Source: Chloroflexota bacterium
GTDB taxonomy: Bacteria > Chloroflexota > UBA11872 > VXNJ01
DNA: 64,000 nt
Assembly (NCBI GenBank): GCA_965261345.1
Contig: OZ253449.1
Coordinates: 64,001-128,000 of the forward strand
Direction: 5' to 3'
The notes beneath the pieces were generated by a model that had not been told where the DNA came from, searched no databases, and saw nothing but the letters and a program-made list of their open reading frames with translations. A program made the position numbers and the translations under genes. Shown here one piece after another: positions 750 through 62,475 of the stretch; position 1 is the stretch's first letter, and every line of letters starts with the position of its first letter.

Positions 750-777
750 GGGTAAATTACTAATGATTATGTCTTGT
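750..777 (+). other. dif-like (Xer) recombination site
   Basis: GGGTAAATTAC-TAATGA-TTATGTCTTGT, intergenic. Confidence 0.65.
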
Positions 778-902
778 ATGGACGTTCCGAGCTTGCGCCG
801 AAGAATCAACCAATCAGATGCGTGCGTCAAATCTCCAACCACTGACACGAGCGTCCCGAGACGAATCTCAATCCGTGCGCGCAGTCGCAAACCGCTCGAC
901 GT

Positions 903-1160
903 CTATCTTTTAGATCTGGCTTTCGCAAGTCCGTAGGCGGTTTGTAGGCCAAGCCATGTTTCTGGGGTCGAACCAAAACTCTCGGACAAGCGAATGGCCA
1001 TTTCAACGGAGACCCCGACCCTTTCATTAACTAACCCCGAGAGCGTTTGTCGCGATACGCCCAATCTCTTGGCGGCCCGAGTTACGTTCAGGGCCAACGG
1101 CTCAAGGCATTCGCATCTGACGATTTCGCCAGGGTGAGAGGGATTCATCATCGGCATCAT
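903..1160 (-). CDS. higA: HigA family HTH antitoxin
   Basis: HPGEIVR...SVEMAIRLS..FGSTPETWLGLQ. Confidence 0.85.
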   Translation of the reverse strand: MMPMMNPSHPGEIVRCECLEPLALNVTRAAKRLGVSRQTLSGLVNERVGVSVEMAIRLSESFGSTPETWLGLQTAYGLAKARSKR

Positions 1161-1166
1161 TGCTTC

Positions 1167-1440
1167 CTTAGTCGTAGTTGATGTAGTCGACGATGTGAGT
1201 GTTGCCGTCCATGAACCTGAAAGTTGCTCGCCAATTTACCGATACGGACACCGCCTAGTGTCCCTTCGACTGCCCAGATATGGGATGCAACTTGAATACT
1301 GGCACATCCACGGATTGCCACTCGGTGCCTTGATCAAGGACCACGGGGATTCGCCTCATCTTCAGAACGTGGTCGGCGTTCAAGTAGGGCCGACCCTACG
1401 GACCGCAAAGCGGACGCGGGCCACAGATTTATTGCCCGTC
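1167..1440 (-). pseudogene. higB: HigB (RelE-like killer) toxin, degraded
   Basis: Remnant KLHPISGQSKGH*AVSVSVNWRATFRF...VDYINYD with an internal stop, upstream of higA; 5' limit approximate. Confidence 0.7.
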
Positions 1441-1501
1441 TGTGAATCGCTAAGTTGTGCGGCCCGCTGGGGATCCTCTCAGTTGCGCTTTGGAGGGAGA
1501 A

Positions 1502-1723
1502 TCAACCAACTTCGATGAGTTCGCTAATCGTGCTTGATTCGGGCAACGATTCGCCTTGGTCGATTAATGCTTCGATATGCATCCCGATGGCCTGACCCAG
1601 TAGCTCCCTAACTTCCTCTTTCGAGTCTCCGGCGGCAACACACCCCGGCAAGTCGGGAACGTAGCCCGAGAACCCGTTATCCGTCTTTTCGATCAACACG
1701 ACAAATGCCGCCGGCGTTTTCAC
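1502..1723 (-). CDS. hicB: HicB family antitoxin
   Basis: FSGYVPDLPGCVAAGDSKEE motif; GTG start overlaps the hicA stop. Confidence 0.9.
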   Translation of the reverse strand: MKTPAAFVVLIEKTDNGFSGYVPDLPGCVAAGDSKEEVRELLGQAIGMHIEALIDQGESLPESSTISELIEVG

Positions 1724-1911
1724 CCGTCTAACCCCGCTTGTCTGAGAATGCTCTTCCATGTCCCTGGAGCCAAATCCTTGCCAAGATTACCTGCCACAGT
1801 GACGACTCCAGACCGCTCTGGGTGCTTGTATTGCCGGTGACTGCCTCGGGTTCGGTCCAGCACCCATCCATTCTTTTCAAGTAATCGAATCGCATCGCAA
1901 ACTCTTGGCAC
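1720..1911 (-). CDS. hicA: HicA family toxin
   Basis: GWVLDRTRGSHRQYKHP...GTWKSILRQAG. Confidence 0.9.
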   Translation of the reverse strand: MPRVCDAIRLLEKNGWVLDRTRGSHRQYKHPERSGVVTVAGNLGKDLAPGTWKSILRQAGLDG

Positions 1912-2122
1912 TAGTCACGCACATTGGGCATTCTTGGCCGTTTGGCCGGGCCCGTGCAATCAGTCACTGGCAACATGGATTGAAAGTCCGGCAATTCTCG
2001 GACATGCCGCAACACCGACTCATGATTTAGCGCAAGTGCCCGGTTTTGGATAGACGCATTCCTAATACATACATAAAAAAGTAAGTCCGTCGAATAGTGA
2101 GTTGATACCGCGAATCCATTTC

Positions 2123-2150
2123 ATGATAGGCATTAATGATTTTGTCTAAT
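2123..2150 (+). other. dif-like (Xer) recombination site
   Basis: ATGATAGGCAT-TAATGA-TTTTGTCTAAT, intergenic. Confidence 0.6.
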
Positions 2151-2252
2151 GCCAAACCGGCGGTGTCCAAGCCCCCGTTGCCGTGCGTATCCGACACAAC
2201 CGGGCAATCACGGTCGCTTGGTCGCTGGGCGCCTTCTTCACCAAATTGAATA

Positions 2253-3176
2253 TCAATCGGCTTGGACGAGAGTTTGTTGTACCGCCCGTGTCCATTGCTC
2301 GCGCCGCTTGGCCATCCAATCCGACATCTGATCCCAATTGGTTTGATCGGTAGCGTCGATCGACAGAAAGAAATGTCCGCTTCCGCTAACTTCCCCGACA
2401 GCACCCTCTGCGCTTATTTCTTCCTTGAGCATTGCCACGGGTGCCGCCAGTGCCGTGCTTCGCTCTGCAGTGGACTCCCCGCGCTCAAGGGGGTAATAGA
2501 TCCCGGCGCCATTTTGCGCCATATATATACAGACTCGCCGTCCTGAATCTTCGACTCGGTCGTAGACATTGCTGCCCGCAAATCCGGACCGTACGGTACC
2601 GGGGTGCCGCCGCTCGAAATGGACCCAAAAATTTTGCCGAAACTGACCAAGTGTTGACAGACCACTGCGTCGAGCTACGCTTCGAATCTGGATTTCCCAT
2701 TCATTCGGGCGTTCAAGTACTTCAAACACTGGCGCCATGGCTGAGTCTCCGATGCGCGCTGCCCTGATTCGGGTCGCAAAAAAGGCGAATCCTTCACCGG
2801 AGTGTTCGTTCAGCCAGCGCAACGCGGAAAGGTGCGCCGCGTCAAAGTTGGTGGCCACCCAGATTACGACTTTTGCGTCGAGTCCTGCAAGGTACGCGAG
2901 CACCTGGCCTAGATGGTGCAAATCTGCTCGCTCCAACTGGTTTTCGATCAACACTCGGTTGCCGTCGCGTGGGTCGCGGGCCACGATGTCGGCACGCAAT
3001 CCATTGACTTCTACCTCAGTGCTTTCCAATTCCAACTCGATACCAATAACATCTGTCAACCGGTTCAAGTTATTGGCCAACCACGGCGTGAAATCGAGTG
3101 CTTCGTGGTCCCATGCGCAGCGGGGGTTCACCCATTTCAGATCTTCCAACGATCGCGTAGCCACGCCCAACTCCAA
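2253..3176 (-). CDS. DUF4268-type protein with N-terminal PD-(D/E)XK (NucS-like) nuclease domain
   Basis: W.HEA.DFTPWL...ADIVA...VLIENQL...DH.HLGQ.L.Y.AG signature. Confidence 0.8.
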   Translation of the reverse strand: MELGVATRSLEDLKWVNPRCAWDHEALDFTPWLANNLNRLTDVIGIELELESTEVEVNGLRADIVARDPRDGNRVLIENQLERADLHHLGQVLAYLAGLDAKVVIWVATNFDAAHLSALRWLNEHSGEGFAFFATRIRAARIGDSAMAPVFEVLERPNEWEIQIRSVARRSGLSTLGQFRQNFWVHFERRHPGTVRSGFAGSNVYDRVEDSGRRVCIYMAQNGAGIYYPLERGESTAERSTALAAPVAMLKEEISAEGAVGEVSGSGHFFLSIDATDQTNWDQMSDWMAKRREQWTRAVQQTLVQAD

Positions 3177-3399
3177 TCCACCGAGGTCAGCTGATTACTG
3201 ACATTTTTCATTCCCAGCGGGTAAATTGCAAACCTTGAAATGCTCACCGCTCAATTGAGGCAGCGGACGACTTAACCGCACTCCAAGCAAATCGGGCAAA
3301 CGCCAATCCGCCGCCAATCTCGATTTACTGCTTAAATTCCTTCGTTTCGCATGCTTCCCGGAAAAACCCGGGCTTCCGAGCGTGGCGATCCCGATCACG

Positions 3400-3427
3400 C
3401 TACCTCGAAATGGTAATTACGTAAAAC
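3400..3427 (+). other. degenerate dif-like site
   Basis: CTACCTCGAAA-TGGTAA-TTACGTAAAAC, intergenic. Confidence 0.45.
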
Positions 3428-3492
3428 GCAGTTACTTGGCCTGCGCCTTGGGCATTCCAATGAAGTCCTTTGCGGTCGCCATGGCCTCCAAA

Positions 3493-3834
3493 TCAGAGAT
3501 TTAACACCAGGCGCAATCCGCGTGAAATCTACGCCAAATACTGTTCAACGACGCGGCCAACGGGCTCAACCAAAAAATTGCGGCCTATCGTGGTAACTTG
3601 TGAGACGTTTGCAACCGAATCTTTGGGAAGCCCGGTAGCGTTGGAATTGAGCGACACATTACCAGGGGCGTCAGCCAATTGCAGATTCGATGAAATGGTG
3701 ATGGCCTATACCGTCTGAATCCGACAGCGGTTGAACGAATCTGCCTGGATGATCAATAGCGGCCGCGTGAAAGCGGGTTCGGACCCCCGGGATTCGGGAA
3801 GGTTTACCCACCAGACCTGTCCCCGCTCAATCAC
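3493..3834 (-). pseudogene. mazF: MazF/PemK toxin with two in-frame TAG stops
   Basis: VIERGQVWWVNLPESRGSEPAFTRPLLIIQADSFN...V*AITISSNL...GLPKDSVANVSQ. Confidence 0.85.
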
Positions 3835-4052
3835 CACCATTCTGCCAATATCGGCCGGGATTGAGCTTCCCTGACAGCTGGATCTAGGTCGCTGGCCGAT
3901 TCCTCGTAGGTGTCATCAAGTCGCGCGGTGATGTCACCGCTCTCGTCTTTGGCCACGAATTCGGCCAGGGCGAGCGCATACAAGGTGGATGCCGTATTCG
4001 CGAAGCGGCTAGGATCTATTTGCAAAGCGCGTGATGCAGCGGTTTCTGGCAT
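3831..4052 (-). CDS. ChpI/MazE-like antitoxin (possibly degenerate)
   Basis: LY..ALAEFV.....DIT..LD..Y....S.LDP pattern; overlaps the mazF start. Confidence 0.6.
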   Translation of the reverse strand: MPETAASRALQIDPSRFANTASTLYALALAEFVAKDESGDITARLDDTYEESASDLDPAVREAQSRPILAEWW

Positions 4053-4142
4053 TGACGCGTGTCGATCTTCAGGCTGAGTCGGGTTAGACGATCATTTTTG
4101 GCGCCCGAGAAGCCGGTTATCCTGCACGCAGGCAAGTGAAGT

Positions 4143-4658
4143 ATGGGTATGAACAAATTCTCAGAGACGTATCGTCAGCGCATGCGCGAGCAACTGGCGT
4201 TTCGCAAGTGGATGCGGATGTGGCGACAACGGTTGGGAATTAATCAAACTGAGGTAGCCGAAACCGTGTCCGGCAGCGGTCAATGGACGGTGAGCTCCTG
4301 GGAGATCGGCAGACAGGCGATCCCGGACGACCTGATAATGCCGATCACCGAGTTTTTGGTGGCCCAAGGCGCGTCTGCGCCCCCGCCCATTGCGGTTAGC
4401 GAACCCGCCTACACACCACCACGGTGGGTTCCGCATTCGCCCGAGTACACAGCCCGGCACCAGCAACAGGCGGCGTTTCGGGATTGGATGACCACGACCC
4501 GCAATGAAGTCGGATTAACACAAACGGAATTAGGCCGCAGGACAGGCTCGTCCCAAGAGGCAATCTCCTTTTATGAAAACGGTCTGCAAGCCATTCCTGA
4601 TGTGATGCTCAAGCAGATTGAGCGTGCGCTGCTGGAAGCGGCGGAATTCGAGTCGTGA
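4143..4658 (+). CDS. Protein with two XRE-type HTH domains
   Basis: Two internal repeats: AFRKWMRMWRQRLGINQTEVA...SSWEIGRQAIPD and AFRDWMTTTRNEVGLTQTELG...SFYENGLQAIPD. Confidence 0.75.
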   Translation: MGMNKFSETYRQRMREQLAFRKWMRMWRQRLGINQTEVAETVSGSGQWTVSSWEIGRQAIPDDLIMPITEFLVAQGASAPPPIAVSEPAYTPPRWVPHSPEYTARHQQQAAFRDWMTTTRNEVGLTQTELGRRTGSSQEAISFYENGLQAIPDVMLKQIERALLEAAEFES

Positions 4659-4833
4659 TTTACTCACGGCGGCGGTTGGTGTTGGCGATGGTTGATGACG
4701 CCGGGAACCCTTTGCCCCAGTTAGGGAGATTGCCTAGTCCGACAACGCCGACGAATCCCTATGCATTGGGTAAGTGCCACGAGTGGGTCAAAGACTGTGG
4801 TGATGGCGATAAAAAGACCGCGGCGAATGACGC

Positions 4834-4861
4834 AAACAGCGTATTCCCTATTTCGTAACAT
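4834..4861 (+). other. degenerate dif-like site
   Basis: AAACAGCGTAT-TCCCTA-TTTCGTAACAT; same spacer as the site at 6833. Confidence 0.4.
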
Positions 4862-5049
4862 CAATTGAATCGCCGGATTTGGATTGAAAAAAGTTGAAGC
4901 AATTCAAACGGCGTTTTCACGAAATTCGCAATTGGCGTTTGCAGGCAATGTTGAGTCTCCGGCACACTCAAGCATGAATGCCACCGGTTCTAGTGTTCTT
5001 GGTGCCTGATATTCCACAACGCTCAATAGAGTTCGTCCGGGGTCCGATC

Positions 5050-5595
5050 CCGCCAACTAGCGATCTTGGCGTCGCCCGACGCTTGATCGATGCTTTCGAC
5101 GCAAGCGACAGTTCGCGCCTGGAGGCATAAGACCAGATACTGGCGTTCATTGATTCACACCCAAATGCCCATTTGAGGTCGTGCATGCCGGGCCATCTAA
5201 CTGGTTCTGCAATCGTCCTCGATCACGCTAAGCATCGTGTCGTGCTGGCGAATCACCGAAAACTTGGCCGTTGGTTGCAGGGGGGAGGTCACGCTAACGG
5301 CGATGCCAATCTGGTGGGTGTGGCGCTGCGGGAATCGGAGGAAGAGAATGGAAACACCAACCTCCTTATTGACCCTGTGCCCATCGATATCGACATACAT
5401 AAGATCCCAGCCCACTGAGGCGTGCCTGAACATTTGCATTTCGACGTTTGCTTCCTTGTTCAAGCAGGCCCTGGCGCGGTGCCCCGTATCAGTGAAGAGT
5501 CACTTGACTTACGTTGGTTCGGATTCGACGACCTTGACGAAATTTCGGCCGACGCAAGATTGCGCAGGCTATTCCGCTTCGCATTTTGGTACTGA
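5050..5595 (+). pseudogene. NUDIX hydrolase, interrupted by stops
   Basis: GHLTGSA...HRKLGRWLQGGGHANG...ALRESEEE...IDIDIHKIP*..PEHLHFD; ends approximate. Confidence 0.75.
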
Positions 5596-5883
5596 GATAG
5601 CGATTGGCGTGGGCCTTAACGGGTAATTGCTGGCGGGATGCCTAACCGACCTTGACACCACTCCGGGGCGGAATCCGATTCTGATCGGAATTGATCGCTC
5701 ACGTATTTGTAGGGAGGAATGGGCTCAGATCCAACCTCAGCGCGGAAGTCATGTTGGTGGGCAAATTGAATCCGCGAATTTCCTCGTTCGCTCGAGTTCT
5801 ATGCGGCGGAGATCAGCATTCACGATTTGGTCGAACATTGGCGGAACCGGAGCGCATGAGGGCAATCAGCACCTAGGTTGAGC

Positions 5884-5911
5884 GCTAGAAGTAATAGAGG
5901 TTAGGTCTAAC
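5884..5911 (+). other. dif-like site
   Basis: GCTAGAAGTAA-TAGAGG-TTAGGTCTAAC. Confidence 0.6.
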
Positions 5912-6141
5912 GCGTGCACTACTCGGCCATCAATTCACCGGTCTCGGCTCCGAACCACCATCGGGCCCAACTTAGGAATTGCAAGCCACGCATTCGGACC
6001 AAACCAGATTCCGCATCTAATCTACGCGCGCAAAAGTGTCGCCATCGCGACTACTGAAATCGTTGTTGTTGGATCGCTTGAGCCCCGCTGACATGCGTCT
6101 GAAAAGCGACGGCGAGGAAACTGTCGACACGCACGACGACG

Positions 6142-6345
6142 TTAATCCAAAGTAGGGTGAACGGCGAACGCCCGGTCAAATCGGATTAAAGTCTGCCACT
6201 GGGCGGCTGCCCAATCCGTGATCTCCCTGTCGGTCGCCCTTGGGTCGCCGACGGTCAACCAGTGAGTAGCCTCCCACCTCTGATCCCGCAGCGCCTGCAC
6301 CCAAACCGGCGACAGATTCATATCTACCTGGACCTTTAACCTCAC
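6142..6345 (-). pseudogene. DUF5615 PIN-like toxin, truncated
   Basis: VDMNLSPVWV....EATHW..VG...ATDREI; similarity is lost after about 50 aa. Confidence 0.7.
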
Positions 6346-6572
6346 GGCGTGGAAAGTGGAACCTCGCGTTCCTCCAGCCTCCAAGCTGCATAAGCCAGAG
6401 ATTGATCAATATCTTCTGGCTCCAAATAGGGATAGGCCTCTAAGATCTCGGCGGGGGAGTGCCCTGATGCCAATAGCCCCACGACAATCCCTACGGTGAC
6501 GCGCATGCCGCGAACGCAGGCCTTCCCACCCATGACGTTGGGATCGAAAGTTATTCTGTCCAGCGCCTTCAT
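6342..6572 (-). CDS. DUF433 antitoxin
   Basis: RITFDPNVMGGKACVRGMRVTV...EILEAYPYLEPEDI. Confidence 0.9.
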   Translation of the reverse strand: MKALDRITFDPNVMGGKACVRGMRVTVGIVVGLLASGHSPAEILEAYPYLEPEDIDQSLAYAAWRLEEREVPLSTP

Positions 6573-6832
6573 GGCCATTCAGTTCCCGAATAAGGAAGGC
6601 GATCTATTCTGTGCACCGCCCTTCAATTAATTGTGGCGGATGCAATTGCACACACTCTTACTGATCGACAATGAGCCATTTGCCGTGCCGGAGCGGATTC
6701 ATTGAGGGCACGGTGAAAACATGGCAAGTAGCTTTCGAAAGTCATTCGCATTCGAATCAAATGGGAGCGGTCCTGAAGTTAGCGGCGGCGTTTGTGCGCC
6801 TTGACAGCGGCCATGACTGGCCTTCACAGAGC

Positions 6833-6860
6833 ATTGAGCATCTTCCCTATTATGTCTACC
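6833..6860 (+). other. dif-like site
   Basis: ATTGAGCATCT-TCCCTA-TTATGTCTACC. Confidence 0.65.
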
Positions 6861-7147
6861 AATGCCGTTTCGGTTGGCTAATCAGTTTCCTCAATCAAGA
6901 ACTAGCCAAGTGCTGCAATGCTTCTTGGACTCGACGAAAGTGTGTCTCAAATCCAGTCGCGCATTCGACGTGACGATGAATTTGAATCCCCAACGAGATT
7001 CGGCGCTCATGCGGAGTGTGAAATCCTGGCACGCGGATATTGCGGCCATAACGTTGCCAGGAGCACTGAGGGCCGGAAAAAATCGGCTCGGCAGGCCCAT
7101 GAATGCTGCAACCGGACTGGCGCATCGGTAGTGAATATGTGTTATTG

Positions 7148-7171
7148 GGCCATAAAGATGGTAATATGGCC
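7148..7171. promoter_or_regulatory. Putative TA operator inverted repeat
   Basis: GGCCATA-N10-TATGGCC directly before the antitoxin ATG. Confidence 0.45.
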
Positions 7172-7173
7172 AT

Positions 7174-7443
7174 ATGAAAACAACGATAGAGCTTCCCGAA
7201 GCCACTTTCCGGCAGGTCAAAGCATTGGCGGCTAGTCGCGGCGTGTCGATGAAGTCTTTGTATACCGAGGCACTTGAAGAACACCTTGCCAGGCGCCTAA
7301 TTGAATCCCAATCCGACGAATTGCGCACAGCACCTTGGATGGCCGGTTTTGGTGCCCTGTCCGACCTCAAGGTCGAAAACCGTCGGATCCTCAATTTGAT
7401 TGAAGAAGAATTTGAAGTGGTCTCGCCTGACGACCTAGCTTGA
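7174..7443 (+). CDS. vapB: RHH antitoxin (VapB-like)
   Basis: MKTTIELPEATFRQVKALAA.RG.SMK; coupled to the PIN gene. Confidence 0.75.
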   Translation: MKTTIELPEATFRQVKALAASRGVSMKSLYTEALEEHLARRLIESQSDELRTAPWMAGFGALSDLKVENRRILNLIEEEFEVVSPDDLA

Positions 7444-7817
7444 TTCTCGATACCAACGCATTGTCAGGATGGGCTGAAGGTCATCCAGAGCTTGCTGATC
7501 ACCTGCGGTCAGCTTTGCGAATAGTCCTGCCGAGTATTGTTCTCGGGGAATATGTGTTCGGGATCCGGCAATCGCGTCATCGTGCCCGGTATGAAGCGTG
7601 GATCAGCGCACACGTGCCCACTGTTGAAATCGCAACGGTAACTACCGCCACGGCATTTGCGTACGCCGATATCCGATTGGAGTTGAAGTCGAAAGGTAAT
7701 CCGATTCCGTCCAACGATGTTTGGATTGCGGCGCTTGCCATCCAGCATTCCCTCCCGGTACTGAGTAACGACATCCACTTTGACGGAGTCAACGGAATCA
7801 GGCGAATATCTTTCTGA
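7440..7817 (+). CDS. vapC: VapC PIN-domain toxin
   Basis: MILDTNAL...IVLGE...IPSNDVWIAALA...SND.HF. Confidence 0.9.
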   Translation: MILDTNALSGWAEGHPELADHLRSALRIVLPSIVLGEYVFGIRQSRHRARYEAWISAHVPTVEIATVTTATAFAYADIRLELKSKGNPIPSNDVWIAALAIQHSLPVLSNDIHFDGVNGIRRISF

Positions 7818-7899
7818 CCCAGCCTTGATGGTTACCAATTGGATCTGGATATTCAAATTGCAATCGCCCGGCTGATCCAGATGTTTGCTGCACCAGCCC

Positions 7900-8559: not shown

Positions 8560-8644
8560 GAGAACAAATCCTGCTAGCTTAACTGGCTAGATTATAAGCG
8601 AAGTGCTACTTCGCTTCCTCGAAATCAGCGACGTCGAATGTCAG

Positions 8645-8672: not shown

Positions 8673-8685
8673 AAGGGCGAGGCCT

Positions 8686-55520: not shown

Positions 55521-55739
55521 GGTTGTTTCTCGATCAACTTCATTCAAATGACCGCTTGTCATGTCCACCGGGGCGACTTCCTTGGATTGGGTCGATGAAA
55601 TTGCCGGCACCTGTCCAATTGCGTCAGATGCAATCCGGCGATGCCATAGTGGAAATCGCCGCGTTGAAAAAACCGACGACGTAGGCCCTCTTCACCTGCA
55701 GTGCGCTTAGCATGACTGGCCGAATCAGTACATCAGGGG

Positions 55740-55767
55740 ATTTGAACTAATAGGGGTTATGTCGAAC
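55740..55767 (+). other. dif-like site
   Basis: ATTTGAACTAA-TAGGGG-TTATGTCGAAC. Confidence 0.8.
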
Positions 55768-55884
55768 TCCGGCGCCCGCGTTTCCCCATCGCAGCTCGCA
55801 GCGGCGCTTCGGGATTGCGCCGATCCATCAACTACCCAGTTGCGTGAACTGACACCCGCCTAAACGCGAATCCTGAAAAACATT

Positions 55885-56178
55885 TCAATCGATTCGCGCA
55901 GTGGCAAACCGCCCGACTTCGATCTTCTTGGATCTTGCTTTCGCCAGATCGCAGGCGGCTTGTAGGCCAAGCCATGTTTCCGGGGTCGAACCAAAACCCT
56001 TTGCCAGGCGAATGGCCATTTCTACCGAAACCCCGGCCTTCTCATTAACCAGCTCCGAGAGCGTTTGACGGGATACGCCAAGTCCTTTGGCAGCCCTGGT
56101 TATTGATAGGCTCAACGGCGCAAGGCATTCGTGCCTGACGATTTCGCCAGGGTGCGGCGGGTTATTCATCGGCACCAT
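55885..56178 (-). CDS. higA: HigA antitoxin (preceded by a higB 3' remnant at ~56186-56290)
   Basis: PPHPGEIVR...; paralogue of 903-1160; remnant NWRVTFRFIDGNAHDVDYIDYH upstream. Confidence 0.88.
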   Translation of the reverse strand: MVPMNNPPHPGEIVRHECLAPLSLSITRAAKGLGVSRQTLSELVNEKAGVSVEMAIRLAKGFGSTPETWLGLQAACDLAKARSKKIEVGRFATARID

Positions 56179-56377
56179 TTCCCCCTTAGTGGTAGTCGAT
56201 GTAATCGACATCATGAGCGTTGCCGTCGATGAACCTGAAAGTTACTCGCCAATTCGCCGTTAAGGAAACGGTACTAACCCGTGCTGGTGCGACAAACGTG
56301 CATGCAATGTATCGCGCAATGATACACTTTGCATAGAATGACCGCATTTGAGGCACCGCTTTGCTTGAGGACCGGCA

Positions 56378-56614
56378 ATGCCCACGGTGGCAATAGAGGG
56401 CCAGGTTCGCTTCATCGTTAATACCAGGGAACATAGTTTTGAACCCCCGCACGTGCACGTCTGGGTAGGCAATGAAGATGTTTGCCGCATTGAACTCAAT
56501 GGCGGTACCTTCATGGAAGCACCCCCGCCCGGAACACGCAGGGAGATAACGAGAGCCTATGCGAGATTTGCCGCGGAAATCAAAAAGACTTGGGACCAAA
56601 TCCATGGAGGGTAG
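56378..56614 (+). CDS. DUF4160-like protein
   Basis: F...REH..EPPHVHV...C.IEL...I...W..IHG. Confidence 0.75.
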   Translation: MPTVAIEGQVRFIVNTREHSFEPPHVHVWVGNEDVCRIELNGGTFMEAPPPGTRREITRAYARFAAEIKKTWDQIHGG

Positions 56615-56617
56615 AAA

Positions 56618-57121
56618 ATGGCCGTCGTTCTAGTCAGAAATGCCAATCGAATGATGACGATTGCCAGCTTAACCGAGGAAGGCATCAAGCTGGGCTTTGC
56701 AGATGGGTCCAGGGGCGTCATTCCATACGGCGATGTCCCCGAAATCAGGGAGCGCGCAGCCATCTCCGGCATTGAGTTGCCGAATCCCTACGAAATGGTC
56801 ATAAAGACTGCCCGCGGCGAACAGGTTGAGATCCCCTGGGACTTTGCCCGACACTACTGTGACAAGTCATATCGACCAACGATCGAAGCAATTGCCATGC
56901 AGGGAAGGCAGGTCCTGGGCGAACGCATACGCCAATCCAGACAATCCAGCGGTTTAACGCAAGAGCGTCTCGCGCGCGCGGCAAATATCGGGCGCGTAAC
57001 CCTGGTGCGGTTGGAAAAGGGAGAGCAAACACCTAGGCTCAAGACCCTTGATGCGATTGCCAACGCCTTAGGGACTCGCGCAGCTGATCTACTTGTCGAT
57101 CCCGAGTGGCTTGACCGATAA
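56618..57121 (+). CDS. DUF2442-like domain fused to XRE HTH
   Basis: IKLGFADG N-terminus; LGERIRQ.R...GLTQE.LA..A.IGR.T..RLEKG. Confidence 0.75.
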   Translation: MAVVLVRNANRMMTIASLTEEGIKLGFADGSRGVIPYGDVPEIRERAAISGIELPNPYEMVIKTARGEQVEIPWDFARHYCDKSYRPTIEAIAMQGRQVLGERIRQSRQSSGLTQERLARAANIGRVTLVRLEKGEQTPRLKTLDAIANALGTRAADLLVDPEWLDR

Positions 57122-57316
57122 CTTTCGACAAGCCGTAGAAATTTGGGGCGGTCACCAGATCAAGCCAGCAACCGCTCATCAAGGGTCCCCACATCTTCGA
57201 TATAGCCGTCAGTACTTGCCCGGCACCCTTGTCAAATTTGGTCGCTTGAGTGGCAAGTTTCCAGATCACCCCGCCCAATTTCCGGTGATTTGCTCGAAGT
57301 ATTACGGGTGTTCGCG

Positions 57317-57344
57317 ATTTGTCATAGTGAGTATTATGACTACT
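57317..57344 (+). other. dif-like site
   Basis: ATTTGTCATAG-TGAGTA-TTATGACTACT. Confidence 0.75.
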
Positions 57345-57424
57345 AAAAAACCCCATCCGGCCATGCAGTTGGCCGCAATTCGCCAACGAAGTCAATTTCG
57401 TAGACAACCTCTAAGGAAGCGTCT

Positions 57425-57535
57425 GTGCCGATGAAATGCCCTCCTCACCCAGGCGAAATCGTGAGGCGGGAACGCCTGGAGCCATTTGGCTTATCCGTTA
57501 CGAGGGCCGCCAAAGGATTGGGAGTTTCGCCGCGA
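57425..57535 (+). pseudogene. higA: higA 5' fragment
   Basis: [36 protein letters not shown]. Confidence 0.65.
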
Positions 57536-57765
57536 TTTTCCCGCCGATGGCTCGGAACCAAGCCAGCATGAGCTTATCTCTGAATCGTTTCTGCGGCCTC
57601 AAGAATTCCGCTCGCGTCGGCCGGAAGTCACCGTCCGCATGCCCGAGCATTCCCTAGGGGAGGCCGACCAGGCGGACTTTGACCGCCTGGGGCCGGTAAT
57701 TGACCGGAGCCGCAACCGCACTGATCGGGCGTCGCCCGGGACCTTGTTCAGTGTCAAGTCAGGAC

Positions 57766-57793
57766 AATGAAGCTCATAGGGATTACGTCTAGT
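57766..57793 (+). other. dif-like site
   Basis: AATGAAGCTCA-TAGGGA-TTACGTCTAGT. Confidence 0.65.
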
Positions 57794-58128
57794 AGTGATC
57801 ATCGCTCGGCTTTAGCCACGGGTCAATCTGCTGGGTGCGAGCGTGCGGCACCTATGGATGGCATTGAGCCGCTGTCCGCCTGTCGGACGAGCGATTGTTT
57901 TTACTTGGTGAGATATTGTTTCCGCATCACCACACGACTTGCTCCCGACGGTGGGGCCACGATATTTGGTGTGCGCAATCCGGTCGGAAGTTTTTCGACA
58001 ACATCATATCGTGCATCAACGGATCTAAGCCTGCTTTGTTTGGATCGCAAATCTGATACCCTCGATAACCCGGCAATCAATGACGCACGGCGTGAGATTC
58101 ATATCCACCAATTAACTGAAGAATTCAA

Positions 58129-58374
58129 ATGTCGGAGGACAGCAACCGTCACGTGGTCACTAATCCTGAAGGTGGGTGGGATGTCGTCAAGCCGAACGCG
58201 GATCGGTCGTCAGCTTATCTGCAAACGCAAGCTGATGCGGTTGAGCTCACGCGCGAAATCGTAGAGAACTTTGGCGGGGGCGAAGTCGTGATTCACCGCC
58301 GCGATGGCCGGATCCGGGATTCCGATACAGTTCCGCCCGGGAACGACCCTAACCCGCCACGCGACTCTCGTTAA
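58129..58374 (+). CDS. DUF2188 family protein
   Basis: RHVV....GGW.V.....R.S....TQ.DA...EVVIH..DGRIRDSDT. Confidence 0.85.
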   Translation: MSEDSNRHVVTNPEGGWDVVKPNADRSSAYLQTQADAVELTREIVENFGGGEVVIHRRDGRIRDSDTVPPGNDPNPPRDSR

Positions 58375-58635
58375 TCGGTCGCCAATTAGAAGTGCCGAGT
58401 GACTAACCTAGCGGCTGAGATTCGGTAGTGACATTGGTCTGCCGACTCTCGGCGAATCTGTCAGAGTGATGGGCCAGTTCGAACTGGAGCAATCCTATTG
58501 GCTGGTTTCCTTGCAGGCGGTGGCATTCGTGCGTGAACGGATCGTTTCTGCGCCGGCCCTTTCGCCGAATTGAATCAATTGTGGTTGAGGTGAACCGATT
58601 CAACGGCAAGTCGCGATTCGAGCCGAGAGATCCAC

Positions 58636-59553
58636 TTGGGACAACATAAAAACCCACAAGAGTATTGGCGGCATTTCGGGAGTCCACCCGGCAAACGCAT
58701 GATCTGGCAATTTGACACGAAAATTCTGAAATATTCCAATCGCCCAATTCCAATCAAGAATGTCGCGCAAGCACGCAATTACTATTCGCCAGTTGACGAA
58801 AAAATGCTGGCTGAATTGATTGAAGCTCCTGCCCACGGGCCACTAAACAAGCTCCGCAACCGAGAGGACCTTAACCCCGACGATCGCTCGAGCGTTGCGT
58901 GGTACATAAACGCGATGGTTCGGCGGGGGCCGCGCGCCCGAAATCATTTGCTGGAAGTATTACCAACCGAATTCAGCGCCTATCGTAAACGACTAATTGC
59001 AAATCTCGACCAGATGATTGAGCGGTACGGACATACCAGTGCCGAATGGATCAACGCACTTGATCAATTGAGTGAACGCATCCTTCGCGGCGACGTTTCT
59101 GACAAGGACGACTTAATCAGGTCGCAGTATTTGGTGGGAAAAGTCGCACTTGCCGTCTTTCATATGCAATGGGTGATAGTCCATTCGAATCGAACTGGTG
59201 AGTTCATAACCAATGACAACCCGGTGTTTTTTACTGAAGGGATCGGCTTGGGGCACCCACAAGCAGAATTGACTCTTCCGCTGTCGCCGCGCACGGCGTT
59301 GCATGCGTCGTGGCGAGGACGGGAATTCGGGCTCGAACATGCATCAGCGACTCAAAATCAACTGGTGAAAGAGATTAATCGACGGACGGTATATGTTGCG
59401 GATCGCATGTTGTACTCACGCGGTAAGCACGATTGGTTAGCGGCAATCGCCGCAAAAAAGCCAAATGTCTTGCTGAAGCCCCTGTACTTTGGACATCCTG
59501 GATTCCAACCAGTTGAAATCCCGGACGAGGACCAATATGCTAGCGTGATTTGA
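58636..59553 (+). CDS. DUF4238 family protein
   Basis: H..PQ.Y.R.F N-terminus; FITNDNPV...LPLSPR motif. Confidence 0.75.
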   Translation: MGQHKNPQEYWRHFGSPPGKRMIWQFDTKILKYSNRPIPIKNVAQARNYYSPVDEKMLAELIEAPAHGPLNKLRNREDLNPDDRSSVAWYINAMVRRGPRARNHLLEVLPTEFSAYRKRLIANLDQMIERYGHTSAEWINALDQLSERILRGDVSDKDDLIRSQYLVGKVALAVFHMQWVIVHSNRTGEFITNDNPVFFTEGIGLGHPQAELTLPLSPRTALHASWRGREFGLEHASATQNQLVKEINRRTVYVADRMLYSRGKHDWLAAIAAKKPNVLLKPLYFGHPGFQPVEIPDEDQYASVI

Positions 59554-59650
59554 GCTCAAATCCGAACGGCGCAGCCTAGTGCAACGAAGTGAAATGCCGC
59601 AACGAACCGCGTCATCTGAACTTTCGATTGGTCCTCAGCAGACAGCGTCC

Positions 59651-59672
59651 GTTTTTCATAATCGCAATTATG
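59651..59672 (+). other. dif-like site split by intron 3 (remainder at 61597-61602)
   Basis: GTTTTTCATAA-TCGCAA-TTATG|intron|TCTTGC. Confidence 0.8.
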
Positions 59673-61596
59673 GAACAGCCAGGCTAACTGGCATGGGACA
59701 GGGGTGCAAGTCCCCCGTGCTGTAAAGAAGGGAGCCATTCTGCAGCACTCTGCGAGTCATGCGCTGATCGCCGCGAGGCGGTTGGTGAAGCGTTGACAGC
59801 AGCGCGTGTGGGCGGGGCGATCGAGCGCCGCAACCTTTACATTCCGGAGCGCCGAGGCTTTCATATTGGTCGAAGGCAACACCTGCTGCGACGACAAATG
59901 GCCAGTCGCAGTTTGGGCTCCGCGGCGTCAAAGAACCCAGGCACGCACGTACGTCTCCTGCCGGGACCTGGGAGATCTGCCAGGTGCCCCGCCATCTCGC
60001 ACGACGGGGCCGCATCGGGGAGGGAGGCAACCGTAGCTGATGATGCACGCCGGGCAGAAGTCTGACGCGGCCGTAGTAGCTGTGAAGTCGGCGAACAAGG
60101 GAGAGCGATCTCCGGCGGAGTCGATAGAGCCAAGGGCCGCGACCAAGAGAAATCCGCAACGCCCGGCACGGGCCGAACCCAGAGTCGGGTAACCGTGTCA
60201 CTCGGAGCCGAGCGGATACGGCAATACGTTAAGGCAAATCCCGGAGGAAAACTCACCGCGCTCCTGCACCACTTAACCCCCGAAACGCTCTTTGCGGCCT
60301 ACTTTGCGCTCAAGCCGAACGCGGCCCCCGGCGCCGACGGGATAACGTGGCAGATGTACGGGGAAGGACTGACAGATAACCTGTCCGGCCTTCACCAACG
60401 CTTGCACAAAGGAGCGTACCGGGCGGCCCCCGTCCTAAGGGTGGAAATACCCAAACCGGACGGCGGAGTGCGAAAGCTCGGAATCGCATCCCTGGAAGAC
60501 AAAATCCTCCAGCGGGCGGTGACAGACAACCTCCTGAACCCGATCTACGAATCGGAGTTCGCGGGATTTAGCTACGGGTTCAGGCCCAATCGCTCAGCCC
60601 ACGATGCGCTGGACGCGCTCGCCTACGTAATAGGGCAACGCCGGGTCAACTGGGTAGCTGAGGTGGACATCAAGGGGTTCTTCGACAATATCGATCGGGA
60701 ACAGCTAATGGCGTTCCTGCAAGATCGCATCGCAGACCGCAGAGTCCTGCGCCTCATCCGAAAGTGGCTCGCCGCCGGTGTCCTTGACAACGGACTAAAG
60801 GTCGACCCCGCACGGGGCACACCGCAGGGAGCGCCGATATCGCCGCTGCTTGCCAACGTGTACCTGCTTGGGTGGGCTCGACCAATGGTTCGCGCGACAG
60901 TGGCGGCCGCAGAAAGCCATCGGCCAGGCCTACATGGTCAGATACGCCGATGACTTCGTACTGGGATTTGAGCACCGCCAAGATGCGGAGAGGTTCCTTA
61001 GGGACCTAGAGGAGCGGTTCACGAAATACGGACTGGAGTTGCACCCCGAGAAGACGCGCCTGATCGAGTTCGGCAAAAACGCGGCGCGTAACCACCGCCG
61101 GAGAGGCGAGCGACGACCGGAGACCTTTGACTTCCTCGGTCTGACGCACTACTGCCGAACGACTCGAACCGGACGCTTCGGACTGGGACGCAAGCCATCG
61201 TCCAAACGCGTTCGCCGCACCCTGAATGCGTTAAAGAACGCGCTGCGCTGGCGCATGCACGACGATCCGGTGGAAACCGGTCAATGGCTCGGAAGAGTAC
61301 TTCGTGGCTGGCTCGGCTACTACGCCGTCCCCACAAGCTACAAATCCCTGGACCAGTTCAAGCGCGCCCTGCAGTGGCTTTGGCTCCGCACTCTGCGCCG
61401 CCAGTCGCAAACCGCAAACTTTGCGTGGGAGCGGCTAGAAGCGATGTGTGAACAGCTTTGGCCCCGCATCCGCATCATCCACCCATGGCCCGCCACACGC
61501 TTTGCCGTCACCCACTCAAGGTAAGAGCCGGATGCGCTAACGCGCACGTCCGGATCCGTGCGGGGGGAGATCGGTAACGATCTTCCCTACCGCGAA
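59673..61596 (+). mobile_element. Group II intron 3
   Basis: Starts GAACAGCCAGG; D5 GAGCCGGATGCGCTAACGCGCACGTCCGGATC; ends CCTACCGCGAA. Confidence 0.92.
60195..61524 (+). pseudogene. ltrA: Intron RT/maturase, frameshifted near 60870
   Basis: RT motifs up to ISPLLANVYL in one frame; RYADDF and domain X in another. Confidence 0.88.
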
Positions 61597-61687
61597 TCTT
61601 GCTCCATTAATCGCGTAGCGCAGATTTGGCCAGCTTGCGTCCCGGGTTCGAGAGCAATCGCTCCGGTGAATCAATTCGCGATCGGAA

Positions 61688-62026
61688 TCAAACCTTTTCG
61701 ACAATCGCAACCGACCTAACTTCAAGTTGCACGCCCTCGTGTTCTTGGATTTGGTTAATCACTTCGAACAGGTTTTTGGCATGCGGGTTGCCATTCGATC
61801 CGAACATGCGCATTAGGCTCTTGGGCGATTTATGCGTGCGAGCGCCCAGTTCCTCAAACCCTATAGTGGCGTTTATGTAATCGCGCAGTAGGACTTTCCC
61901 TGCGTCGATTTCTCCGCCCAGCAAACATTGGACGCCCTCGTTCAATAACCCTTCCCGAAACAAGGGATCGACTATTGCCCGGGCTTGCACCGTTTCCTTG
62001 AATTCACGCGTAAGAGCCACTCTCAT
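61688..62026 (-). CDS. Addiction-module antidote (HTH DNA-binding)
   Basis: ALTREFKETVQAR...LLRDYINATIGFE.L...KSLMRM....GNP...NLF. Confidence 0.85.
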   Translation of the reverse strand: MRVALTREFKETVQARAIVDPLFREGLLNEGVQCLLGGEIDAGKVLLRDYINATIGFEELGARTHKSPKSLMRMFGSNGNPHAKNLFEVINQIQEHEGVQLEVRSVAIVEKV

Positions 62027-62349
62027 TCCCTCCGATTTCGATTCCTGAAATCCTGCCAATTCGCTTTGGCCGTCGCAATGTCTGATTGCTGGCGCGCCTT
62101 AGTGCCTCCGCCGAGCAAAATGACCACCGTTTTCCCTTCACGACCGAAATAAATCCTGTAGCCAGGACCAGTATGGATGCGGAATTCCGTTACTCCGCCG
62201 CCAACTCCCTTCGTATTTGAGAGGTTGCCAGTGGCCATTCTGGTTAATCCGGTTGTGATCTTTATTGCTGCCTGGGAATCCAGCCCTGCGAACCATCGGC
62301 CGAATGGACTCCGACCCGTATCGTCCAAGTATTCGCGAAGCTCAGACAT
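62023..62349 (-). CDS. RelE/ParE-family addiction-module toxin
   Basis: G.SPF..WF..L...GN....K.VG.GV.E.RI..GPGYRIYFG...LLGGG.K..Q..DI. Confidence 0.9.
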   Translation of the reverse strand: MSELREYLDDTGRSPFGRWFAGLDSQAAIKITTGLTRMATGNLSNTKGVGGGVTEFRIHTGPGYRIYFGREGKTVVILLGGGTKARQQSDIATAKANWQDFRNRNRRE

Positions 62350-62355
62350 CGATAG

Positions 62356-62377
62356 ATGGTAACATATCCGTTACCAT
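62356..62377. promoter_or_regulatory. Putative TA operator palindrome
   Basis: ATGGTAAC-ATATCC-GTTACCAT just upstream of the toxin start. Confidence 0.6.
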
Positions 62378-62447
62378 GCTGAGTGAAATAGATCAGCGCA
62401 CCTTGAACTGCGAAGGAAGTTGGCTACAAGCCATTTGAGCGCCGCTG

Positions 62448-62475
62448 GTTCGACCTAATCGCCATTATGTCTTGT
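62448..62475 (+). other. dif-like site
   Basis: GTTCGACCTAA-TCGCCA-TTATGTCTTGT. Confidence 0.85.

Follow-up and report, generated by a model that had tools for sequence, protein, structure and literature searches.

Sites resembling dif form a two-sided array around the likely dif of this chromosome and are densest in the 64,000-nucleotide window analysed here. We consider it probable that the array is an Xer-dependent cassette platform, i.e., that two-sided arrays of sites around dif carry exchangeable toxin-antitoxin, defence, and metabolic modules. An initial annotation had proposed an Xer-driven integron-like platform at 750-62475. The array there is real, and it extends far past the window, reaching ~218 kb on the window's side of dif and ~63 kb on the opposite side. 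The computational checks we ran support the proposed platform, with the amendment that serial insertion at dif alone is insufficient to explain it.

Dif-like sites in the window

Each array site consists of an 11-nt arm, a 6-nt spacer, and a second 11-nt arm. The good arm, TTATGTCTAnT, faces away from dif in each site and is the arm of a palindrome antipodal to dnaA, while the other arm is weaker and mostly ends in TAA. The initial annotation had listed 29 such sites, and we inspected all 29 of the 28-mers. They were scored with an independent position matrix derived from three related genomes (44 sites, all absent from the window), using a cut-off of 14 bits. By this measure, 24 of the 29 pass (14.1-29.9 bits; Table 1), where 0.37 per strand per 64 kb would be expected from the hit rate in the rest of the genome. 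Four of the listed positions fail: 3400 (-2.4 bits), 4834 (-6.9 bits), 41072 (-6.3 bits), and 41641 (9.4 bits). The remaining one of the 29, 59651, scores 7.8 bits but is a true site interrupted by a group II intron. Its left flank recurs at genome position 190946, there running into an intact site, and Rfam matches lie inside the split site (RF02005 at 59707-59937 and RF00029 at 61523-61597). We infer the ends of this intron to within 1-2 nt.

All 24 passing sites are on the + strand, and the six - strand matches of at least 14 bits in the window are the same positions read in reverse. Searching with the 11-nt arm of the palindromic dif (at most two mismatches) gave 16 matches on the + strand of the window and 0 on the - strand, compared with 43/46 (+/-) in the 2.09 Mb beyond the flanks (4.25 per 100 kb, both strands summed). 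With shuffled arms, the window's + strand averaged 3.7 matches and never exceeded 13. The strong local enrichment that had been predicted for a matrix scan is present. Elsewhere in the genome lie 16 of the 61 sites of at least 14 bits, nine of them, of mixed polarity, at 1.295-1.339 Mb; a position inside long ORFs suggests that some of these matches may not be sites.

The claim that all copies are intergenic holds in the ORF map, apart from a 53-aa ORF (11786-11947) that overlaps one site and ORF 26890-27222, which overlaps another by 2 bp. Genes in the site-to-site intervals face either way, as had been described, and a promoter motif is thereby ruled out. The sites, on average roughly 2.5 kb apart, lie in accessory DNA with a lower GC content (57.2% vs 61.7%), and the units between them measure 0.4 to ~4 kb, or more where IS elements have inserted. 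Their cargo, annotated with Pfam throughout, with PADLOC for cassettes 1-17 and with Rfam for cassettes 18-24, consists overall of toxin-antitoxin pairs, defence-type nucleases and helicases, and small metabolic modules.

Table 1. Dif-like sites, related features, and cassettes, in window coordinates. Bits are from the independent matrix; G002 and G003 are related genomes, and G002 coordinates are genome positions.
Feature	Position	Strand	Bits	Remarks
Dif-like site	750..777	+	23.3	Spacer TAATGA
Dif-like site	2123..2150	+	20.7	Spacer TAATGA; homology with G002 begins at the spacer (junction alignment with G002 1636016)
Dif-like site	5884..5911	+	23.5	Spacer TAGAGG; left edge of a cassette block common to G002, G003, and contigs of two other studies; blocks begin 6 bp from site centre in both partners; contigs of X6 and X7 begin at 5895, the first spacer base
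Dif-like site	6833..6860	+	21.9	G002 has an identical, inverted copy across dif, at 1608882
Dif-like site	8645..8672	+	16.4	Identical in G002 at 1605124
Dif-like site	9421..9448	+	21.4	Spacer TCAGTA; identical in G002 at 1604349
Half-site remnant	10226..10242	+		Matches G002 site 1603545 over left arm and initial 3 spacer bases; right half replaced with unrelated sequence in the alignment; G002 homology block stops here, and at the site centre on the G002 side
Dif-like site	11912..11939	+	25.6	Left edge of HigB/HTH cassette, which is common to G003 (98%); block stops 2 bp from site centre in both genomes; contigs of X1 and X7 begin at 11923, the first spacer base
Dif-like site	12858..12885	+	27.2	Spacer TAATGA; right edge of HigB/HTH cassette; a contig of X6 terminates at 12885
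Dif-like site	13761..13788	+	21.0	
Dif-like site, weaker	17156..17183	+	14.2	
Dif-like site	23341..23368	+	22.0	
Dif-like site, two good arms	26864..26891	+	26.6	
Dif-like site	27805..27832	+	17.6	Left edge of 3.8-kb SWIM/DUF2442/TacA-GNAT cassette
Dif-like site	31630..31657	+	14.1	Right edge of the same cassette
Dif-like site	32965..32992	+	24.2	Right arm and downstream sequence in common with site 42968, left arm and flank unlike (repeat D6)
Dif-like site	34579..34606	+	18.2	
Dif-like site	34737..34764	+	15.4	158 bp from site 34579, start to start
Dif-like site	37128..37155	+	21.6	Inside 300-nt repeat D1, 100% identical at 41321-41620
Dif-like site	41606..41633	+	21.6	Duplicate of site 37128
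Dif-like site	42968..42995	+	29.4	
Dif-like site	55740..55767	+	26.0	
Dif-like site	57317..57344	+	22.4	
Dif-like site	57766..57793	+	20.5	
Intron-split dif-like site	59651..61602	+	7.8	Left arm, spacer, and TTATG at 59651-59672; TCTTGC at 61597-61602
Group II intron	~59673-61596			Interrupts right arm of site 59651 after TTATG
Dif-like site, near-palindrome	62448..62475	+	29.9	28.5 bits on opposite strand; G003-shared block stops 8 bp from site centre
Cassettes 1-8	778..13760	.		HicB; PDC-S11 candidate defence protein and HTH/MqsA-like protein; DUF433; VapBC and Phd/PIN; DUF2442; unknown 460-aa protein; HigB/HTH; unknown 241-aa protein
Cassettes 9-17	13789..37127	.		HNH nuclease and DEDDh exonuclease fused to superinfection-immunity domain; UvrD-like helicase with inserted IS21; GmrSD; Phd; SWIM/DUF2442/TacA-GNAT; unknown 326-aa protein; HEPN/MNT; empty 130-bp interval (between sites 34579 and 34737); DEAD helicase
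Cassettes 18-24	37156..62447	.		GFO/IDH/MocA oxidoreductase and IS; formamidase; 12.8-kb interval packed with IS256, IS110, IS3, DDE fragments, and two group II introns; HTH/DUF4160; DUF2188/DUF4238; others

The terminus and mirrored polarity

A perfect 11-6-11 palindrome, ATTAGACATAA-TCATTA-TTATGTCTAAT, lies at genome position 1555-1582, ~62 kb left of the window, and is the only perfect palindrome of the site type in the genome. The position of dnaA (1,187,872) agrees with the cumulative GC-skew minimum (1.18 Mb), and measured from dnaA the palindrome divides the circle 49.6%/50.4%. Because it is opposite both dnaA and the GC-skew minimum, this palindrome is likely the chromosome's dif, and the suggestion that the array might be located near the GC-skew terminus proved correct. 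An ORF spans the contig ends, which fits a circular contig. In sister genera, all six genomes showing the full site (5/5 in g3 and 1/1 in g4) have exactly one palindrome, AGATATAA-N6-TTATATCT, and the three of those six that were searched for extra half-sites have none.

The sites had been described as having a single polarity. This is strict in the window, but the polarity is mirrored on the other side of dif. Across the four single-contig genomes of the genus (G000, i.e., this one, plus G002, G003, and G006), the 60 array sites right of dif comprise 57 + and 3 -, and the 34 left of dif comprise 33 - and 1 +, counts from related genomes with some shared cassettes, which a Fisher test treats as more independent than they are.

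Homology breakpoints and cassette mobility

Breakpoints between related genomes were expected to coincide with the sites, and block ends were indeed found inside them. Comparison between genomes produced 304 homology blocks, and 40 of 1216 block ends lie within 15 bp of a site centre (random-site control: mean 6.4, maximum 36, 1000 trials). Block ends are paired at a site in both partners in 17 of 608 cases. Where two sites have only one flank in common (the right in nine pairs, the left in five), the switch point always lies in the stretch from the final left-arm base to the right arm. The crossover position is resolved to 'inside the site' only, because the spacers fall into few shared classes. 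Contigs from two other studies begin at the first spacer base of sites 5884 (X6 and X7) and 11912 (X1 and X7). Such run data consisted of assembled contigs, in which rare junctions cannot appear, and they showed no circle.

For eight cassette families, two genomes each hold full-length copies bounded by sites (85.5-99.5% identity, against 67-73% for the same genomes at two core loci); three of these families lie on opposite sides of dif and are inverted. The 3.8-kb cassette at 27805-31657 has a second copy at genome position 51344-55152 and is also in G003, with block ends 6-8 bp from the site centres in both genomes and 94.2% identity. All four genomes share, in syntenic position directly right of dif, a block of abhydrolase and hydantoinase A/B (77-81% identity, 96% in G002). 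It follows that dif is not always the point where new units join, which speaks against serial insertion there as the whole history.

Recombinases

The genome encodes two tyrosine recombinases, with best matches to XerD (210 bits) and XerC (143 bits), scores which are below the NCBIfam equivalog cut-offs (329.6 and 335 bits, respectively). G002 and G003 encode the same two Xer-like proteins and no other tyrosine recombinase, and G006 has both plus a weak third match. The two Xer-like proteins are the only site-specific recombinases common to all four genomes. FtsK is present. No integron integrase was found, the best integron models reaching 58-64 bits against cut-offs of 265, so the description of the array as integron-like without IntI stands. 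By exclusion, and from the likeness of the sites to dif, the two Xer-like proteins would be the enzymes that catalyse exchange at the array sites.

Alternative explanations

The sites could instead be fossil scars, i.e., inert remnants of past IMEX-like Xer insertions, with the present mosaic produced by homologous recombination, dif-centred inversions, and long terminus-segment transfer. Long segments do move (G000 and G002 share 96.4% identity over the 24 kb surrounding dif), several indels lie away from sites (1,946 bp at 7839|7840 and ~245 bp near 6200), and degenerate left arms with differing spacers would make poor substrates. We nevertheless consider this unlikely. Single cassettes of 0.8-3.8 kb occur in unrelated contexts with both ends 2-14 bp from site centres in both genomes, and they reach 94-99.5% identity where the two tested core loci of the same genomes reach 67-73%, which marks the moves as recent. 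Inert scars would also have decayed, whereas the right arm is conserved over dozens of sites in four species. Less probable again is that another enzyme, or plain short-homology recombination at repeats, moves the cassettes and that the likeness to dif reflects shared ancestry only. G000 has four serine recombinases and many IS elements in the same region, and since breakpoints are irresolvable within the shared 17 nt, short-homology recombination there would give an identical trace. However, serine recombinases were found in none of the three other array-bearing genomes (G002, G003, and G006), the 11-6-11 layout is that of tyrosine-recombinase core sites with a good arm equal to that of the antipodal palindrome, and chance short-homology events would not give strict mirrored polarity in four genomes.

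Clustering around dif and polarity mirrored around the terminus, which resembles the Ter-site layout in E. coli and B. subtilis, would also suit binding sites for a protein that organises or protects the terminus (a polar fork trap like Ter/Tus or RTP, or a matS-like domain marker), with the sites marking cassette edges only because they are confined between genes. We find this improbable, as it accounts neither for homology switching inside sites nor for the same cassette and site halves on either side of dif; the sites are also dense and in lower-GC accessory DNA, and array sites are absent from the sister genera searched. As for a chromosomal integron, or an attC cluster without integrase (CALIN), the long array of small, promoter-independent, toxin-antitoxin-rich units is suggestive, and the core GTCTAAC in the right arm fits RYYYAAC, the attC inverse-core consensus. 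But in addition to the missing integrase and the presence of only two tyrosine recombinases in G000, the conserved unit is just 28 bp, reading the sequence revealed no partner GTTRRRY 50-130 bp downstream, and genes are in both orientations, leaving this explanation with almost no credence.

Proposed mechanism and related systems

In the Xer-dependent platform that we favour, the two host Xer-like recombinases would bind array sites, with strand exchange in or at the spacer. Since the array sites of either side are direct repeats, a unit could leave as a circle with one site, made of its own weak arm, a spacer, and its own good arm. Re-entry could then occur at dif itself or any of the array sites. 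Because asymmetric sites would pair in parallel only, every insertion would keep the local polarity. The palindromic dif could pair in either orientation, and this, together with inversions between dif and array sites, would yield a pair of arrays with mirrored polarity. Neighbouring direct repeats may be kept from constant mutual deletion by their weak arms and unlike spacers. Cassettes presumably also have a route from cell to cell.

The array near the replication terminus of this small chromosome resembles an integron run by housekeeping recombinases, in which dozens of copies of the chromosome's own dimer-resolution site bound swappable cassettes. Its closest known relatives are IMEX elements and the dif-module islands of Acinetobacter.

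Sites and matrix tests

The initial annotation had placed 29 dif-like sites in the window. On sequence reading, the 28-mers at all 29 positions share ..(C/A)TAA, six bases and TTATGTCTAnT, and the inner halves CATAA and TTATG are reverse complements, giving the layout of a dif-type core: an 11-nt arm, a 6-nt spacer and an 11-nt arm. We call TTATGTCTAnT the good arm and the other the weak arm, name each site by its window start, and use cassette or unit for the DNA between neighbouring sites.

To avoid circularity, a second matrix was built from 44 sites in three related genomes, none of which is present in the window. Information content peaks at ..ATAA-N6-TTATGTCTAnT in two independent matrices, i.e., imperfect inverted-repeat arms in an Xer/dif-type layout. 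With the independent matrix, 24 of the 29 sites score 14.1-29.9 bits, while the rate in the rest of the genome gives an expectation of 0.37 per strand per 64 kb. The claimed set stands for these 24 and for the intron-split site 59651, and falls for sites 3400, 4834, 41072 and 41641, which fail this matrix. All 24 passing sites are on the + strand, as had been claimed, and the six '-' strand matches of at least 14 bits in the window are the same positions read backwards. A matrix iterated on its own matches drifted to AT-rich sequence and was replaced by fixed matrices. Spacers fall into a few classes (TAATGA; TCGCCA/TCGCAA; TGAGTA/TCAGTA; TAGGGA/TAGGGG).

Two other readings of the motif were considered. 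The ATG in TTATG could belong to a promoter or translation-start motif, but it opens short frames only (e.g., 9 codons at site 12858). The strand of the motif is also constant, whatever the direction of the cassette genes, which rules out a promoter motif and a promoter common to the cassettes. The sites could also be attC-like; attC sites span 57-141 nt in an R''-L''...L'-R' arrangement and would call for a partner core and for an IntI with its integron-specific domain. No second core is visible downstream of the 28-mers on sequence reading, Rfam matches in the window are to group II introns only, and no IntI was found (see Recombinases). The dif-type reading is the one we carry forward. A metagenome pattern scan returned 120 loci with one exact match each, but the twelve top-ranked loci all have 14-37% GC, where an AT-rich matrix fires by composition, making them uninformative.

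Two local features are also recorded. Two good sites 158 bp apart (start to start) enclose an empty 130-bp interval at 34607-34736, like an empty cassette slot. Window positions 36843-37142 and 41321-41620 are a 300-nt repeat, 100% identical, which comprises a cassette tail, a whole site and 9 bp, and whose copies flank a GFO oxidoreductase gene and an IS.

Position of dif and polarity of the arrays

The genome is a single contig of 2,393,548 bp with 61.7% GC (57.2% in the window, which takes up bases 64001-128000), and an ORF spans the contig ends, which fits a circular contig. Cumulative GC skew reaches its minimum (1.18 Mb) exactly where dnaA lies, at 1,187,872, and peaks at the contig ends. 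A perfect palindrome (see table) is 1.186/1.207 Mb from dnaA, i.e., 49.6%/50.4% round the circle, and is therefore where dif is expected. This agrees with the location near the GC-skew terminus that the initial annotation had considered possible. There is one palindrome per genome in all four single-contig genomes of the genus: the window's own (G000) and three others (G002, G003 and G006), each with a dif region and array. All six sister-genus genomes with a full site (5/5 in one sister genus, 1/1 in the other) have exactly one like palindrome, AGATATAA-N6-TTATATCT, which supports the dif assignment. Three of these six were searched for extra half-sites and had none, and among the genomes searched this shows the array to be a trait of this genus.

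Coordinates of dif, recombinase genes, introns and secondary site clusters
Feature	Coordinates	Description
Candidate dif	genome 1555-1582	perfect palindrome ATTAGACATAA-TCATTA-TTATGTCTAAT
Serine recombinase, ~690 aa	genome 34669-35121, 38811-39263, 1056222-1056674	three gene copies
Serine recombinase, 433 aa	genome 140276-140728	
Group II intron in site 59651	window ~59673-61596	splits site after TTATG; TCTTGC from 61597; Rfam 59707-59937, 61523-61597
Reverse transcriptase ORF of that intron	window 60195-60953	
Second intron	window ~46.2-48.1 kb	+ strand; not in a site
Third intron	window 49.7-51.6 kb	- strand; not in a site
Secondary clusters (L033, L034)	genome 1,295,054-1,339,246 and 1,573,092-1,636,882	full two-armed sites, mixed polarity

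The expected local enrichment is also seen. Allowing at most two mismatches, the dif arm TTATGTCTAAT occurs 16 times on the + strand and 0 times on the - strand in the window, 29/7 over 1.6-230 kb, 4/9 in the last 70 kb, and 43/46 in the remaining 2.09 Mb; for shuffled arms on the window's + strand the mean is 3.7 and the highest count 13. G000 has 61 sites of at least 14 bits: 38 to the right of dif (36 '+'), 6 to the left (5 '-'), dif itself and 16 elsewhere. In G002, G003 and G006, all sites left of dif are '-' and all right of it are '+', bar one. Summed over the four genomes, the counts are 57 '+' and 3 '-' on the right and 1 '+' and 33 '-' on the left, and although these genomes are kin and have some cassettes in common, such that a Fisher p-value on the counts overstates independence, the mirrored pattern is plain. 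The single polarity proposed earlier therefore holds within the window and not for the array as a whole, which is two-sided, with 33/34 sites left of dif on '-'. On each side of dif the sites are co-oriented direct repeats, always with the conserved arm on the side away from dif. In this the arrays are like integrative mobile elements exploiting Xer (IMEX), which are bounded by dif and a dif-like site in direct repeat. Orienting dif itself by its spacer was rejected, as the spacer differs by one base between G000 (TCATTA) and G002 (TCAGTA), which flips the call.

The two secondary clusters are lower-GC islands. Some of their sites lie in an inverted duplication and within long ORFs (L034 8655-13457, 1600 aa; 15492-16991), and because they are inside long ORFs, some may not be sites. 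Site 1339246 of these clusters has the arm type of the sister genera (AGATATAA). A genome of another family in the same order (G054) has 14 sites of the form AGACAGAA-N6-TTCTGTCT (at most three mismatches; 2 for a reversed control), spaced 0.75-4 kb apart on small contigs (C248, C338, C371, C241, C320 and C399), and may hold a second array with different arms.

Cassette content

Toxin-antitoxin genes in the cassettes, by Pfam, are HicB, VapBC, Phd/PIN, HigB/HTH, TacA/GNAT, HEPN/MNT, RelB, DUF433, DUF2442 and DUF4160/HTH. Defence-type genes (Pfam and PADLOC) are GmrSD (PADLOC Orf5/HEC-06), an HNH nuclease, PDC-S11, a UvrD-like helicase, a DEAD helicase, and a DEDDh exonuclease fused to a superinfection-immunity domain (PADLOC PDC-S48). 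Metabolic genes (Pfam) include a GFO/IDH/MocA oxidoreductase and a formamidase, and units near dif carry hydantoinase A/B, an MFS transporter, a flavoprotein and a TPP enzyme. The genes face both ways. No phage, replication or transfer genes were found in the ORFs scanned, so the units differ from IMEX that replicate or transfer autonomously.

The array has been entered by IS21, IS256, IS110, IS3 and other DDE elements and by three group II introns (Pfam, Rfam). One of these introns interrupts site 59651, whose left flank also precedes an intact site at genome 190946.

Breakpoints at sites

The initial annotation had expected differences between genomes to break within the sites, and two kinds of comparison bear this out. 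In the first, 300 kb around dif of G000 were compared with 400 kb from G002, G003 and G006, which gave 304 homology blocks of 250 bp or more, with 1216 ends. Of these ends, 40 are at most 15 bp from a site centre, against a mean of 6.4 and a maximum of 36 for random sites (1000 trials), this maximum being high because of the many IS copies. Paired block ends fall at a site in both partners for 17/608. One example is window 27812-31651, which, with a second copy at genome 51344-55152, matches G003 1728937-1725101 at 94.2%, all ends being 2-8 bp from site centres and the G003 copy lying inverted across dif. Another is window 11923-12886, 97.9% identical to its G003 counterpart, with ends 2 and 14 bp from site centres.

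In the second, site pairs with only one flank in common were aligned: nine have the right flank alone in common and five the left. In all 14, the switch falls between the last left-arm base and the right arm, and four of the nine pairs with a common right flank have the same spacer but a different last left-arm base. The weak arm therefore tends to travel with the upstream unit, and the spacer and good arm with the downstream unit. The crossover cannot be placed more finely because the spacers fall into few classes.

Contigs assembled from four public runs (three studies) were also aligned to window 1-20000; these show contig ends, not circles or rare junctions, and stretches without contig cover carry no weight as evidence. 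Setting aside the study that is the likely source, contigs of the remaining two begin exactly where a spacer begins: at 5895 in site 5884 (runs X6 and X7) and at 11923 in site 11912 (X1 and X7). One contig stops at 12885, where site 12858 ends. The contigs also show that blocks in 5895-12885 are present elsewhere. A half-site persists at window 10226-10242: it agrees with a G002 site over the left arm and three bases of the spacer, and then gives way to unrelated sequence.

Some indels lie away from sites. At window 7839|7840, 1,946 bp present in G002 and in an X1 contig are absent from G000; this segment has its own site (G002 1607055), and its ends are not at sites. A deletion therefore seems to have fused two cassettes into interval 6861-8644, which holds two toxin-antitoxin pairs. 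An apparent contig joint from 7839 to 9417 was discounted, as one side is 30 nt and it probably reflects the likeness of site 9421 to the site within the 1,946-bp segment.

Cassette exchange between genomes

Eight families of cassettes occur full-length between sites in two genomes, with 85.5-99.5% identity, and three of the eight are on opposite sides of dif, inverted. Window cassettes 6833-9448 lie on the other side of dif in G002, flipped. Most of the 52 G000 intervals have no full-length partner in G002, G003 or G006, as expected for a large cassette pool.

The 24 kb spanning dif (genome -12,224 to +11,787; L031 and L032) are 96.4% identical between G000 and G002, while the two core loci of 3.5 kb that hold the Xer-like genes described below have 67-73% identity to G002, G003 and G006 (67-70% for G002). 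From these identities, the whole terminus segment around dif seems to have been exchanged between species.

Recombinases

G000 encodes two tyrosine recombinases: one of 303 aa, best matched by XerD (210 bits, cut-off 329.6), and one of 335 aa, best matched by XerC (143 bits, cut-off 335.15). Both are Xer-like and below the NCBIfam equivalog cut-offs. The same two occur in G002 and G003, and the same two plus a weak third in G006. G000 has one FtsK. Eight distant loci, in Chloroflexota, Dehalococcoidia, Anaerolineae and other MAGs, hold relatives of the XerD-like protein at 27-37% identity, and together with the protein-atlas neighbours these point to a Chloroflexota host.

The absence of IntI, as claimed earlier, is confirmed for this genome: both tyrosine recombinases are Xer-like, and the best integron-integrase models reach 58-64 bits (cut-off 265) and 37-39 bits (cut-off 435). 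The window was likewise correctly said to encode no recombinase of the relevant kinds, as 0/60 ORFs scanned match tyrosine or serine recombinase families (Pfam), the only recombinase genes among them being IS transposases and intron reverse transcriptases. The array units thus lack a site-specific recombinase of their own and, like IMEX, would rely on one encoded elsewhere. Serine recombinases could in principle act on the sites, and three of the four in G000 are in the terminus region, but none was found in the array-bearing G002, G003 and G006 (0/3). By elimination, and because the good arm is identical to the dif arm, the Xer-like pair is the likely catalyst of site recombination.

Proposed mechanism

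Since the array sites on a given side of dif repeat directly, any two of them could recombine and free the intervening units as a one-site circle, which could re-enter at dif or at any array site. Asymmetric sites would pair in parallel only, so insertion there would keep the local polarity. At the palindromic dif, a circle could pair either way, and its insertion would leave a site with the weak arm towards dif and recreate the full palindrome. The same would follow if dif recombined by inversion with an array site on the inverted side: cassettes would switch sides and be flipped, as window cassettes 6833-9448 are in G002. Both routes would keep the good arm pointing away from dif, which is the rule in all four genomes. 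Weak arms and unlike spacers may limit deletion between neighbouring sites, as suggested by work on the gonococcal island (PMC5357621) and on Acinetobacter plasmids (PMC11705084).

Entry at dif alone would be the simplest version, but some evidence stands against it. To the right of dif, 4/4 genomes keep synteny over an abhydrolase and hydantoinase block at 77-81% identity (96% in G002), and some indels are off sites. In G002 and G003, dense arrays adjoin dif on its left side alone, where the first site is 1.5 and 3.1 kb away. Entry at dif and at array sites is the version we keep.

Taken as a whole, this would be a gene-capture platform with no dedicated integrase, in which dif takes the place of attI and the housekeeping Xer pair that of IntI, and in which non-replicating cassettes with one weak and one strong arm are stocked in mirror image around dif and traded between species ~70% identical at two core loci. 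We regard the chances for and against this full reading as evenly balanced. The observation in the initial annotation was largely right, and its interpretation, for which we infer the catalysis, is supported by every computational test run.

Significance

Integrons are the textbook case of cassette capture, and Xer-like recombinases are the presumed ancestors of their integrase. The array would be a natural system where plain Xer-type sites and host recombinases seem to do the integron's job at the dimer-resolution site. If true, integron-like cassette systems arose at least twice from the Xer lineage, and the terminus regions of other phyla may hide more of them, G054 being a possible second case. 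It would join chromosome dimer resolution, IMEX and integrons in one picture, and would give a concrete case of dif-like direct repeats tolerated beside dif, an open point in Xer biology. It would also point to a plentiful and clearly bounded store of toxin-antitoxin and defence genes in a phylum that has had little study, and offer a search rule: find the palindromic dif of a genome, then oriented, half-degenerate copies around it.

Comparison with known systems

The initial annotation knew of no described array of this size and polarity, and a full-text search (subscription journals and supplementary files being outside it) likewise returned no large, mirrored, co-oriented dif-like array flanking a chromosomal dif. 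According to the review PMC5357621, IMEX have no integrase of their own and carry a dif-like site in which one arm is degenerate, a feature believed to keep them stably integrated; they form direct repeats next to dif and can accumulate in tandem. The units described here are alike in lacking an integrase, in having a dif-like site with one poor arm and in residing in tandem at dif. Known IMEX are phages, satellites or large islands of 5-57 kb, one to few per genome, whereas here there are dozens of 0.4-4 kb units, mirrored on both sides of dif, in a Chloroflexota-like host genus.

The pdif/dif modules of Acinetobacter (PMC12907356 and PMC11705084) are small, stand in rows bounded by 28-bp XerC/XerD-type sites and carry toxin-antitoxin and IS cargo, with site sequence governing compatibility. 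Size, cargo and rows of sites are thus alike. Their sites alternate C/D and D/C, i.e., are inverted, and the modules are mostly on plasmids, with one chromosomal 'dif module island' of 10 sites in 36 kb, far from the main dif (PMC12907356); experimentally, they were not excisable and their sites form cointegrates instead (PMC11705084). In the present array, by contrast, sites on a given side repeat directly and the main dif lies between the two sides; G000 has 38 + 6 of them (at least 14 bits), and the phylum is another one. The contrast with inverted sites that had been drawn earlier survives, with every matrix-passing window site (24/24) on the same strand.

Superintegrons are alike in function only: they too are long arrays of small, mostly strain-specific, toxin-antitoxin-rich cassettes, in which every cassette has one recombination site as its boundary and a privileged full site heads the array. 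The array differs in having no IntI or attC found, 28-bp double-strand-type core sites, two sides, and cassette genes that face both ways with no common promoter.

The tandem genomic islands of Dehalococcoides at ssrA encode recombinases themselves and insert at the tmRNA gene, close to the origin; they are not known to target dif at the terminus. They are nevertheless alike in being a Chloroflexota chromosome region built by serial site-specific insertion, which leaves direct repeats.
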